A program made the position numbers and the translations under genes. Positions 261 through 2,192 of a DNA stretch of 64,000 nucleotides are shown here, in pieces. The stretch comes from an uncultured Elusimicrobia bacterium (lineage in GTDB: Bacteria > Elusimicrobiota > Elusimicrobia > UBA1565 > UBA9628). The stretch's first letter is position 1. Each line of letters opens with the position of its first letter. A model generated the notes under the pieces. That model did not search any database. It had not been told where the DNA came from and saw only the letters and a list, made by a program, of their open reading frames with translations. The stretch is from positions 5,456-69,455 of the forward strand of contig CAZZGQ010000001.1 of the NCBI GenBank assembly GCA_964653765.1. Direction: 5' to 3'.

Positions 261-685
261 TTCCCCCTCGAAATCCGCGAAACGAGCTCCCGAACCTTGC
301 TCTCCGCTTCTTCTCCCTCGCCCTCGACGCGATCAGTGACCGCGCCGTTGCGGTCAATCAGCAGGATGGTCGGCAGCATTCGGACGCCAAGCTTCTCAGC
401 CAGAGTCGACTCGCGCTCGACGTCGACGCGCTTAGCCTCGAAGCCGGCCGGAAGGCCGGCCTTGGCGGCTTCGAAAGCGCCGTAAACGCGCTCGCAGTCG
501 GCGTCGTGGTCGCGGTCATTGAGAAAGAGATAGAGCGCGGGACCGGCCGTCCGCTCCTCATACGTGGTGGGCGGCGCGACCGCTTCCTGCCGCATGTGCT
601 TCGCGGCCATCACCGCCGCGACGGCTGTCGCGACGAGCGCCAAGATAAAACTCCGCTTGTTCATGAGCACCCTTCCTTCGAGCAC
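257..685 (-). CDS. Periplasmic thioredoxin-like fold protein (signal peptide; single Cys, no canonical CxxC)
   Basis: 142 aa. N-terminal signal peptide MNKRSFILALVATAVAAVMA. Thioredoxin-fold-like core (YLFLNDRDHDADCERV...LLIDRNGAV). Overlaps the MtrA-like gene end by 25 nt and is coupled to ccdA. Confidence 0.45.
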   Translation of the reverse strand: MLEGRVLMNKRSFILALVATAVAAVMAAKHMRQEAVAPPTTYEERTAGPALYLFLNDRDHDADCERVYGAFEAAKAGLPAGFEAKRVDVERESTLAEKLGVRMLPTILLIDRNGAVTDRVEGEGEEAESKVRELVSRISRGK

Positions 686-1806
686 GGCGATTTCGCGCAG
701 CGCGACTCGGGCGCCTCATCCTGGACGTATTCGCCGCCCGTCTTGAGCGCGCTTTCGGCGCGAGCTAGCTCCTGGCCCAGATAGCAGGCGTGATCGAGCC
801 GACTCACGAGCTTCTGCTCGACAGCCGCCGCATAAATGGCGCCGATGTCGTCGCCTTCCAGGATCGTATCGAGCACGCCTTCGTTAGTATAGTGTTCGAC
901 CACGAGCCGCTGGCGCGCCTTGTCGGCGAAGATCACGAAGTAGCCGTTCGGATCGAGGACCAAGGGTGCTCGCTCCGCCGTCTCAAGTACCGGTACATGC
1001 GCGCCCGATGCGGCCGCCTCGAATGGAGCAAGGCCCTCCTCCGCGCAGTGGCGGGCGGCGTCCAGGATCGCCGCGGCTTCGGTGCAGCCGAGCTTCGAGA
1101 CCAATCGGACCTGCTTCTGAAAATGCGCCACGGTCTCCCGGTCCACGTTCTTGAGGTAAGGACGCTTGCCTTGCGCGCCGATGATCCGGCCGCGCTCGTC
1201 AATCCCGTTCTCAAACAAGCTGACGAGAGACTGTCCCGGCAGATGGCCGATTCGTTGGCGAGAGTCCTCGCCGCAAAGGAGCAGAAAGCGGATGTTCCCG
1301 TTGGCGACCACGTTTTTGATGAGCCGTTCGATGCCGAGGTTCTCGGTATGGAGGCTGCCGACGATGGCCAAGCCTTCTTGTCGGCTCGCGGTCAGCTCCG
1401 CCGCCAGTGAGGCGGAGTTGAGCGTGCAGACCGCCACCGGCGCGCGGTAACGGAGGACATGATAGTCGCCCGGCAGTGGCGGCCAGCCTGCGCGTTCTTT
1501 GTCGCCCGCGCTGACCGCGCAACTGTCCCCTCCGGCGAACGCCGGGTGAGCGCCCGCCAAGGCATTCGTGGCGATCGCCGGGAAGCACACCTTACAGCCG
1601 AGGCAGTCGTATTCGACCGGACGGAACGTCGCCTCCGATTGGCGCAGGAGCGGCTCGATTTCGGCGCGCTCGGCCTCCGACAACTCGTGAAGATTCTCCC
1701 GCAGCGTCTGCGCGAACGATTGCTGGCAGCCGCAGGTCCAGCATTTTTTGTATTTGACGGCGTCCCTGAGCTGCCCTAGGACGGAGTCGAGCTCGCCGCG
1801 TTTCAT
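661..1806 (-). CDS. MtrA-family (tetrahydromethanopterin S-methyltransferase subunit A-like) corrinoid-binding protein, with N-terminal Cys-rich domain and C-terminal extension
   Basis: Start taken at the internal ATG (MKRGELDS...), because the upstream part of the track ORF overlaps arsR. The core matches archaeal MtrA: WPPLPGDYHV..VAVCTLNS...TENLGIERLIKNVVANGNIRFLLLCGEDS..GHLPGQSLVSLFENGID..RIIGAQGKRPYLKNVDRETVAHFQKQVRLV. N-terminal ~100 aa carry CWTCGC and CLGCKVC motifs. ATGA overlap with the arsR stop. Confidence 0.6.
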   Translation of the reverse strand: MKRGELDSVLGQLRDAVKYKKCWTCGCQQSFAQTLRENLHELSEAERAEIEPLLRQSEATFRPVEYDCLGCKVCFPAIATNALAGAHPAFAGGDSCAVSAGDKERAGWPPLPGDYHVLRYRAPVAVCTLNSASLAAELTASRQEGLAIVGSLHTENLGIERLIKNVVANGNIRFLLLCGEDSRQRIGHLPGQSLVSLFENGIDERGRIIGAQGKRPYLKNVDRETVAHFQKQVRLVSKLGCTEAAAILDAARHCAEEGLAPFEAAASGAHVPVLETAERAPLVLDPNGYFVIFADKARQRLVVEHYTNEGVLDTILEGDDIGAIYAAAVEQKLVSRLDHACYLGQELARAESALKTGGEYVQDEAPESRCAKSPCSKEGCS

Positions 1807-2180
1807 CACCTTCCCCCTCGCGCGTCCTCGAGCAGGCACAAGCCGCGGTCGAGCAGTTCGGTAACGCACGGGTCGACGATCCGGTAGAAGATCTGGAGGC
1901 CCTCGCGGCGCGCCGCGACGATCCGCTTGACCGCGAGGCGCTGAAGCTGATTCGACACGGCTTGCGGCTTCATCCCGATGCGCCGAGCCAGTTCCAGGAC
2001 GCAAAGCTCCTTCTCGCGCGCGAGGGCGTGCAGCAGCCGCAGACGCGTATCGTTTGCGAGGACCTTGAACAATCCCTCCAAGCCCGAGGACTGGCGAGGG
2101 TCGATCAAGGGCCGCGCGGTGAGCGCCGGCTTGGGATTGCATCCTGGATTCGATCGGCTCACTGCATAAGTATTACACAC
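1806..2180 (-). CDS. ArsR/SmtB-family metalloregulator (HTH)
   Basis: LFKVLANDTRLRLLHALAREKELCVLELARRIGMKPQAVSNQLQRL is a canonical ArsR wHTH with a Cys in helix 3. The start is uncertain: a GTG at 2180 lies inside the operator palindrome, and an alternative GTG lies at 2162. Confidence 0.8.
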   Translation of the reverse strand: MCNTYAVSRSNPGCNPKPALTARPLIDPRQSSGLEGLFKVLANDTRLRLLHALAREKELCVLELARRIGMKPQAVSNQLQRLAVKRIVAARREGLQIFYRIVDPCVTELLDRGLCLLEDARGGR

Positions 2181-2192
2181 AATGGTGTAATA
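2171..2192. promoter_or_regulatory. Perfect 8-bp inverted repeat with 6-bp spacer (TATTACAC-acaatg-GTGTAATA) at the arsR 5' end; putative ArsR operator
   Basis: Seen directly in sequence. Overlaps or abuts the arsR start, as expected for an autorepressor site. Confidence 0.4.

Follow-up and report, generated by a model that had tools for sequence, protein, structure and literature searches.

A putative corrinoid methyl-transfer system built around an MtrA-like protein in a metal(loid)-sensor-controlled bacterial operon

Why would a bacterium keep a relative of MtrA, a subunit of the archaeal N5-methyl-tetrahydromethanopterin (H4MPT):coenzyme M methyltransferase, under the control of an ArsR-type repressor? 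The question is raised by a stretch of 64,000 nucleotides from an uncultured Elusimicrobia bacterium (positions 5,456 to 69,455 of contig CAZZGQ010000001.1, assembly GCA_964653765.1), the whole of which we refer to as the window. An earlier note, made from the sequence alone, had described at its start an operon encoding an ArsR repressor, an MtrA-like corrinoid protein, a thioredoxin-like (Trx-like) protein and the membrane protein CcdA. The answer we tentatively favour is that this operon specifies a soft-metal(loid)-inducible system in which a corrinoid would pass methyl groups to a metal(loid), in a manner analogous to HgcAB.

The operon and its MtrA-like protein

All four genes are on the minus strand, and at each junction the stop codon of one overlaps the start codon of the next. 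The first, arsR (1806–2162), encodes an ArsR/SmtB repressor of 118 aa belonging to a clade that we term type A; its GTG start follows the call on an identical public contig, and the longest open reading frame (ORF) reaches 2180. Next come the MtrA-like ORF (661–1806; 381 aa), the gene for a monothiol Trx-like protein that is probably membrane-anchored (257–664; 135 aa) and the 5′ part of a CcdA/DsbD_TM gene (1–260; 86 codons from a GTG start), which is cut by the window edge and encodes 220 aa at full length on the identical public contig. At the arsR/mtrA-like junction the sequence TGATG (1808–1804) lets the stop and start codons share one base, while the mtrA-like/trx and trx/ccdA junctions read ATGA (664–661) and GTGA (260–257), respectively. 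The gene set, its placement and the GTGA coupling are thus as the earlier note had them, but the ATGA which it assigned to the arsR/mtrA-like junction belongs to the next junction downstream. Translational coupling extends over all four genes, which are conserved as a set from phylum to phylum.

The centre of the second gene product (residues 105–264; 1015–1494, minus strand) matches the Pfam MtrA family PF04208 (138.3 bits, E=2.7e-40; cut-off 25), so that the proposed MtrA-family core passes the profile search far above threshold. Among solved chains, those nearest to it are the MtrA proteins of Methanothermus and Methanocaldococcus (E=1e-32; PDB 5LAA and 5L8X, both MtrA structures), and it shares their Rossmann-like corrinoid-binding fold. 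In the MtrA structure, His84 is the cobalt ligand and Glu54 its hydrogen-bond partner (PMC4915002). These residues align with H188 and E155 of the window protein, both of which are invariant among 50 homologues. Fold and motifs place the protein within the MtrA family of Pfam, and, to judge from this alignment, its core is an MtrA-type corrinoid fold in which the ligand residues are kept.

Three further regions flank this core. The N-terminal domain (residues 1–98; 1513–1806) is predicted to be helical and carries the motifs CWTCGC and CLGCKVC, as the earlier note had read them; the six cysteines (C22, C25, C27, C68, C71 and C74, in the pattern CxxCxC...CxxCxxC) are invariant in the 50 homologues. 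A profile of this Cys6 domain finds just 307 proteins among 1.84 billion representatives, and in nine of the ten longer hits that were scanned the domain stands N-terminal to an MtrA-DUF4346 arrangement, the tenth (P0243) having no Pfam match. Downstream of the core, what had been described as a C-terminal extension of ~130 aa is indeed present, and proves to consist of a PterinBD-DUF4346 domain followed by a three-cysteine tail. The former (residues 284–363; 718–957; PF14251, E=2.9e-22) has eight invariant residues (D285, E304, H305, D338, H339, E346, Q362 and D363) and is modelled as three strands and two helices; a second match is to the C-terminus of TIGR00284, an archaeal DHPS-like family, and no relative was found in the PDB by sequence profile. 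The tail, CAKSPCSKEGCS (664–708), is disordered in the model (residues 366–381 have a predicted local distance difference test score, pLDDT, <50). Its cysteines are nonetheless a constant feature, with at least two in the last 25 residues of 115 of 119 homologues and exactly three in 89, and some variants relocate the Cys cluster from the tail to a linker.

Taken as a whole, the architecture is not new to the databases. NCBIfam NF002128 covers it end to end, N-domain included, with 462.5 bits against a cut-off of 568, and the equivalog cut-offs of TIGR01111 (137.8 versus 249.15) and NF002126 (141.5 versus 161) are likewise not reached. The full-length match combined with scores under the cut-offs indicates a family that is catalogued but misnamed. 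We do not regard the window protein as an MtrA orthologue. Besides falling short of the equivalog cut-offs, it has no C-terminal membrane helix and ends in the Cys-rich tail instead; Mtr partners are lacking too, as no mtr genes occur in the window, and neither mtrB–H nor other one-carbon (C1) genes are linked to the module in the ~160 related loci examined. It also differs from archaeal MtrA in its added Cys6 domain, DUF4346 and Cys3 tail, in its altered meander motif and in its setting, which is bacterial, controlled by a metal(loid) sensor and surrounded by metal-resistance genes. Pfam and NCBIfam show no methyltransferase domain in the window protein, which lacks the class-I S-adenosylmethionine (SAM) fold of ArsM, and an NCBIfam scan (E<=0.1) returned neither HgcA nor HgcB models.

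Repressor, operator and membrane partners

The product of arsR is a bona fide ArsR/SmtB protein (NF033788, 81.5 bits versus a cut-off of 55; HTH_5 PF01022, 32.8 versus 22, E=6.5e-8), as had been proposed. Its closest solved structure is 6UVU (E=3.5e-37), to which it is ~60% identical with all four cysteines conserved. It carries ELCVLEL and thus lacks the classical R773-type α3 metal site, ELCVCDLC; three cysteines, C8, C99 and C109, are invariant in the type-A clade. A persulfide sensor of the BigR type was considered and rejected, the BigR model scoring 43.6 bits against a cut-off of 155.

Nine base pairs upstream of the GTG start lies the palindrome TATTACAC-N6-GTGTAATA (2171–2192), equivalently written TATTACA-N8-TGTAATA, which is perfect and unique in the window; none is expected in 100 shuffles, even allowing two mismatches. 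When up to two mismatches are allowed, it immediately precedes arsR in 23 of 24 type-A loci drawn from distant phyla and in none of 45 loci with the second type of regulator described below. Chance can be rejected on its uniqueness within the window together with this phylogenetic footprint. The palindrome that the earlier note had picked out is, as predicted from its conservation, the operator of the type-A ArsR clade, overlapping the promoter region.

Regulators of two types head these operons. Type A, found in the window, accounts for about one third and type B for about two thirds; the latter is CadC-like, with an N-terminal CxxxC and an ELCVCD motif (E=1e-20 to CadC, 1U2W). To see what else the window's clade accompanies, metagenomes were scanned with the type-A ArsR alignment, giving hits that are 58–71% identical. 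An MtrA-like gene follows the type-A arsR in 25 of 67 evaluable metagenomic loci. Among the type-A loci with no MtrA-like hit (n=52), the partner is ArsM in 24, a MIP channel in seven, ACR3 in five and HgcA plus HgcB in four; the ArsM, ACR3, HgcA and HgcB partners score above the NCBIfam cut-offs and the MIP channel, at 168.4 bits, just under its cut-off of 171.25. The operator, too, often precedes arsR genes that head arsM, acr3, MIP and hgcAB loci. An arsR 58–64% identical to that of the window stands directly upstream of hgcA-hgcB in three loci (L135, 818–2749; L115; L154), with HgcA and HgcB scoring 461.8 and 121.5 bits beside these clade members. At L115 only, the arsR is preceded by the operator, in the form ATTACAC-N6-G(T)GTAAT; none with two or fewer mismatches occurs at L135 or L154.

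Judged by the genes that it heads, the clade of the window regulator controls genes for the detoxification and methylation of arsenic as well as for the methylation of mercury. Metalloids of the As(III) type are likely inducers, since the type-A clade controls arsM, acr3 and hgcAB, and we infer derepression by As(III) from the pairing of the clade with arsM, acr3 and the MIP channel. The CadC-like sensors in the other two thirds of the operons suggest inducers of the Cd/Pb/Zn/Bi type. The arrangement in the window resembles arsR-arsM and arsR-acr3 operons in having the same ArsR clade (58–71% identity), the same palindrome and a repressor translationally coupled to the genes that it controls. 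It differs in that the controlled enzyme is a corrinoid protein rather than ArsM, and in that most such modules use the CadC-like regulator.

The two membrane partners are unusual members of their families. The Trx-like protein is borderline for PF00085 (24.4 versus 23.5 bits), and its homologues (n=53) share a cis-Pro ‘PT(V/I)’, an ‘EGE’ motif and a single conserved cysteine, found as DADC in the window and within CGC in some homologues. A CxxC motif is absent from all 53. Its hydrophobic N-terminus is best read as a membrane anchor, because natural fusions join the Trx-like domain to the C-terminus of the MtrA-like protein, and fusions in the order MtrA-like, transmembrane (TM) helix, Trx-like place that domain outside the cytoplasm. 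The earlier description of a signal-peptide thioredoxin-like protein therefore holds as to a weak Trx match, but the protein lacks CxxC and its N-terminus behaves as an anchor. The CcdA fragment in the window matches PF02683 with 29.6 bits against 27.1 on 86 aa, and the full-length copy has NPCC and APCATP, the two TM ‘PC’ motifs of the family. Neither the NPCC pair nor the PC(A/G/S)TP motif varies among 52 homologues, of which 81–88% have another CC pair ~11 residues after NPCC. These vicinal pairs resemble those of Hg(II) importers.

The pair does recall the CcdA/DsbD–thioredoxin relays (ResA, CcmG, ScsBC), in which a DsbD_TM protein stands beside an anchored Trx-fold protein and the two TM PC motifs are likewise kept. 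It departs from them in that the Trx-like partner lacks the CxxC of a thioredoxin-fold acceptor, in the NPCC and second CC pair, and in the coupling to a corrinoid protein and a metal sensor. The trans-envelope thiol relay that had been proposed can point to the DsbD_TM and Trx family matches; it is made doubtful by the missing CxxC and by the CC pairs. Carriage of a metal(loid) fits these partners as well as, or better than, transfer of thiol electrons.

Distribution, fusions and metal context

Relatives number 228 in species-representative genomes, and among the candidates scored more than 2500 proteins proved to be homologues. The operon recurs in at least eight phyla, and occurs in soil, freshwater and marine metagenomes. 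Its carriers include Acidobacteriota, Myxococcota (Anaeromyxobacter oryzae), Bdellovibrionota, Planctomycetota, Verrucomicrobiota and Chloroflexota, together with Beta-, Gamma- and Alphaproteobacteria such as Dechloromonas, Thiobacillus, Methylomonas methanica, Hyphomicrobium and Bosea. Gene order was counted in the 80 best loci, the denominators being evaluable cases. An arsR on the same strand precedes the MtrA-like gene in 55 of 74 loci; ccdA follows it in 51 of 70, and the Trx-like gene does so in 49 of 70. All four genes are also retained in a 63%-identical copy whose genomic surroundings are unrelated. ArsM-like genes appear in 3 of 80 genome loci. About one quarter of the operons lack CcdA and the Trx-like protein and have other Cys-rich membrane proteins or metal exporters instead.

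The earlier remark that no such combination is known holds for the searchable literature, but not for the sequence databases, where it is widespread. Searches on the operon and on DUF4346, including the name MtrA combined with arsR, mercury, ccdA or thioredoxin, and on the Planococcus plasmids described below, returned nothing relevant; MduS appeared in the searched literature only as a table entry, and preprints on organometallic selenoproteins and on the mlp cluster do not mention the family.

Functional association is also visible in gene fusions. ArsR is fused to the MtrA-like protein in two cluster members, the MtrA-like protein to a TM helix and the Trx-like domain in three (P0194 and two more), and the MtrA-like protein, at either end, to a 4-TM ‘GCCGSP’ membrane domain in several separate clusters. 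A fourth kind, with a SAM methyltransferase (P0056), is known from a single cluster member on one 5.4-kb contig. Assembly artefact is unlikely for the first three kinds, each of which has multiple members or clusters, and possible for the SAM-methyltransferase fusion. The 4-TM domain (P0180, P0187, P0243 and P0270; also L033, 3378–3914, and L060, 7424–8158) has the motif G-C-(F/W)-L-x-G-C-C-G-S-P-M, a Cys-rich C-terminus and no Pfam match, and in some operons it stands in for CcdA and the Trx-like protein.

Two genes recur as insertions between arsR and the corrinoid gene. At nine loci the inserted gene encodes a MerC-family membrane protein, and at seven (L014, L019, L026, L030, L031, L043 and L048) a Cys-rich V4R protein. 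The latter is 178 aa long, with an N-terminal PCCEPVSCC, a C-terminal ACC and a final cysteine; most of these insertions are acidobacterial, and Methylomonas methanica contributes one. V4R domains are regarded as binding small hydrophobic ligands or tetrapyrroles.

Around the module, metal handling predominates. Neighbours include MerR-family regulators (9 loci), RND pumps (11), outer-membrane factors (9), P-type ATPases (8), CDF (5) and SMR (11) transporters, and LolCDE-like ABC transporters accompanied by a TlpA-like redoxin (6); Dechloromonas hortensis has an entire Tn21-type merR/merTPCA operon next to the module. In a census of 300 randomly sampled neighbouring ORFs, the commonest annotated products were class-I SAM methyltransferases (9 of 300), then CDF (8) and SMR (7), and no ars family was among the top families. 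The neighbouring methyltransferases are MduS-like (5 loci and the fusion; E ~1e-80 to NF045649) or ArsM-like (the three loci noted above). ACR3 occurs in 2 of 80 genome loci, and mer genes are in the minority too (MerA 3 of 80, MerT 3 of 80, Tn21-type MerC 2 of 80). We rejected the arsenic island as a general description, ars genes being rare beside the module, and likewise a specifically mercury-directed reading, mer genes being recurrent but a minority; Hg is kept as one candidate substrate only. Of the link to arsenic or other metalloids that the earlier note drew, a connection to methylation is plausible, given a regulator clade shared with arsM, acr3, aquaporin and hgcAB genes and the SAM methyltransferases. 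Specificity for arsenicals does not follow, since two thirds of the repressors are CadC-like and the neighbours are mostly those of Hg, Cd, Zn and Cu.

On two Planococcus plasmids (NZ_CP013660.2 and NZ_MN657143.1), a variant gene is the last of an arsR-HMA-P-type ATPase operon. The variant protein (459 aa) lacks the Cys tail and has instead, where its Cys6 and MtrA domains are joined, three metallothionein-like ACGC(D/N) repeats. The plasmids are small and mobilizable (MOBV), and an ISL3 transposase follows the MtrA-like gene.

The window itself is a metal island. A double-HTH XRE-family protein (2219–2743, minus strand) ends 27 bp before the arsR operator, and a terminator-like hairpin with a 16-bp stem lies at 2788–2823. 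The interval 3298–8837 holds a PadR regulator (3298–3621) and a CzcCBA/CusCBA-like RND system in which an outer-membrane factor and a membrane-fusion protein accompany a pump of 1022 aa (5769–8837). A second metal cluster (29100–36351) contains MerA (29100–30785, minus strand; TIGR02053, 465.5 versus 454.45 bits), a MerT-HMA (MerTP-like) fusion (31091–31858, plus strand), a protein whose N-terminus resembles that of the ‘DF family (seleno)protein’ (33022–33696, plus strand) and a CopA-like P-type ATPase (33781–36351, plus strand). Beyond the window start, the identical public contig (L001, 7430–11484) continues directly after ccdA with an MbnB/MbnC-like pair (methanobactin-type or TglH-type peptide modification), then SCO1/SenC, a PCuAC-like copper chaperone, cytochrome c and coproporphyrinogen oxidase. 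Elsewhere in the window are a 2dG-II purine riboswitch aptamer (56564–56635, plus strand; Rfam RF03165, 74.4 bits versus a gathering threshold of 60, E=2.6e-17), of a class that is uncommon, an nhaA-I RNA riboswitch (10192–10238, minus strand; RF03057, 42.8 versus 37 bits) and, near the latter, an ORF (10910–11239, minus strand) of which only the C-terminal half of a MIP/aquaporin channel is matched and which may be truncated or mis-called.

A possible methyl-transfer role and its alternatives

How might these parts work together? In the scheme that we tentatively favour, a thiophilic metal(loid) would bind the three invariant cysteines of the repressor, which would then leave the palindrome, the CadC-like sensor filling this role in the other two thirds of the operons. 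The Cys-bearing membrane pair would move either the metal(loid) or reducing equivalents through the inner membrane, and the Cys3 tail and Cys6 domain would hold the metal(loid), or supply electrons, beside the corrinoid of the MtrA-type protein, the putative catalytic component, which would reside in the cytoplasm. The corrinoid would alternate between Co(I) and CH3-Co(III) and donate its methyl group to the bound metal(loid), the opposite direction being less likely. The methyl donor may be SAM in at least some lineages, which is probable for those in which a SAM methyltransferase is fused or adjacent.

The closest parallel is HgcAB, for which the methyl route runs from SAM through cobalamin to Hg (PMC11588087). 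Both systems combine a corrinoid protein with Cys-rich, Fe-S-like modules and an association with a membrane domain; the Cys tail is comparable to the C-terminal CC of HgcB, SAM is implicated as methyl donor, and the same ArsR clade and operator occur upstream of hgcAB in metagenomic loci. There is, however, no homology, and the resemblance is functional only, one of logic and not of ancestry. HgcA is of the corrinoid iron–sulphur protein (CFeSP) type, with a cysteine on the cobalt and the cap helix N(V/I)WCA(A/G)GK, whereas the window protein is of the MtrA type with a histidine ligand. Many carriers, moreover, belong to genera known as aerobes (Methylomonas, Bosea, Paraburkholderia, Planococcus), and hgcAB is not typically hosted by these.

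Several observations weigh against a methyl-transfer system of this kind. The meander motif of true MtrA, GAIPFxEN, is altered here to GKRP(V/Y)LKN, and the N-domain has no significant match to known Fe-S or Zn domains, the ferredoxin-like profile hits being non-significant. The core operon has no dedicated methyl-donor enzyme of the pterin-binding MtrH/MeTr type, SAM methyltransferases stand beside only ~10% of the loci, and the window contains no cobalamin riboswitch. CcdA/Trx pairs classically shuttle electrons rather than metals. No one substrate is singled out by a mixed Hg/Cd/Zn/Cu/As context and regulators of two unrelated types, and methylation of Hg or Pb is not obviously protective to the cell. 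Finally, the binding of cobalamin, the content of Fe-S or Zn and the identity of inducer and substrate are all putative.

A bolder proposal is that the MtrA-like/DUF4346 protein is the core of a cobalamin-dependent metal(loid) methyltransferase or demethylase that is independent of HgcAB and ArsM; this we consider possible, if rather doubtful. B12-dependent methylation of arsenic or other soft metal(loid)s has been described in cell extracts since the 1970s and, to our knowledge, has never been assigned to a dedicated protein. Under the cobalamin-dependent reading, the protein could conceivably, and with the same degree of doubt, be the enzyme behind that activity or behind merB-independent methylmercury turnover.

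One alternative runs the corrinoid the other way. Cob(I)alamin would attack imported methylmercury, methylarsenite or a related species at its methyl carbon, giving CH3-Co(III) and the reduced or free metal(loid), and the methyl group would pass via DUF4346 to a pterin or thiol; the protein would then be a merB-independent, ‘oxidative-type’ demethylase. The MerC-family gene inserted at nine loci, whose NCBI family name is ‘organomercurial transporter’, speaks for this, as do the merT, HMA and mer operons nearby and the sharing of DUF4346 with an archaeal pterin-enzyme family. The importer-like Cys membrane partners and the Cys3 tail would mimic the import-then-transform logic of mer operons, which likewise pair a periplasm-facing Cys protein with a vicinal-Cys membrane protein and have an enzyme with a flexible C-terminal Cys tail; mer genes are also often near the module, with merA and merT-HMA in the window itself. 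Demethylation independent of merB has been reported and is mechanistically unexplained (PMC12130583), which counts in favour of this alternative. None of the three window proteins is homologous to MerP, MerT or MerA, and the enzyme would be a corrinoid protein, not a flavin disulfide reductase. Against demethylation, the SAM methyltransferase fusion and neighbours suit methyl donation better than methyl removal, CadC and ArsM-type ArsR sensors are known for inorganic ions and not for organometals, and every step is as conjectural as in the favoured methyl-donation scheme. We consider demethylation unlikely.

Envelope thiol-redox maintenance under metal stress appears improbable to a similar extent. 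CcdA would here feed reductant to the Trx-like protein, which would protect or repair periplasmic cysteines under attack by soft metals, and the Cys6/corrinoid protein would serve as electron input or redox sensor and not act on metal at all. This would make direct use of the DsbD_TM and thioredoxin family matches and of a gene order that is strict and translationally coupled; an Fe-S cluster could sit in the Cys6 domain, with its CxxCxxC, near redox-active cysteines, and some loci swap the pair for a TlpA-like CxxC redoxin and a DsbD N-domain-like protein. Yet CxxC is lost in every Trx-like homologue, leaving one cysteine or CGC, vicinal CC pairs are atypical of electron-transfer CcdA, and about one quarter of the operons have neither partner; nor does this explanation give any role to the invariant cobalt-ligand histidine or to DUF4346.

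Passive metal(loid) buffering or chaperoning, metallothionein- or ArsD-like, with the MtrA fold as a scaffold that no longer uses cobalamin, is very unlikely. The very high and conserved cysteine content, the Planococcus variant with its ACGC repeats at the end of a cadC-cadA-type operon and the changed meander motif are all consistent with it. However, the equivalents of His84 and Glu54 and many polar residues of the MtrA core and DUF4346 are invariant over at least eight phyla, which argues for a retained cofactor or catalytic site, and the SAM methyltransferase fusion is hard to square with a passive buffer. A metal-unrelated role in ordinary C1 metabolism, as a subunit of a methyl-H4MPT or methyl-tetrahydrofolate methyltransferase, can draw on the database name ‘tetrahydromethanopterin S-methyltransferase subunit A’, the homology to MtrA, the pterin-enzyme affinity of DUF4346 and the methylotrophs with H4MPT pathways among the carriers (Methylomonas, Hyphomicrobium), but we dismiss it as highly improbable given the lack of linked mtrB–H or other C1 genes in the ~160 loci, the sub-equivalog scores (TIGR01111, 137.8 versus 249), the missing C-terminal membrane helix, the consistent metal(loid)-sensor control and metal-resistance surroundings, and the fact that most carriers are not C1 specialists.

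Two routes of metal(loid) methylation are understood, namely the SAM-dependent enzymes of the ArsM type and the corrinoid system HgcAB. If the favoured methyl-transfer scheme is true, the operon would represent a third, evolutionarily independent solution, built on the MtrA fold of methanogens. The regulator clade and operator, common to arsM and hgcAB, suggest a shared regulatory response to soft metal(loid)s. Whatever the chemistry, the system is accessible to experiment, with cultured carriers in Anaeromyxobacter oryzae, Dechloromonas and Methylomonas methanica as well as the Planococcus plasmids, and it offers a monothiol Trx-like protein paired with a CC-type CcdA, a Cys6 domain with no structural relatives and DUF4346, all within a family that databases presently label as a methanogenesis subunit. 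Should the protein methylate or demethylate As, Hg, Pb, Sb or Bi, surveys that rely on arsM, hgcAB and merB only would miss part of the environmental potential for these transformations.

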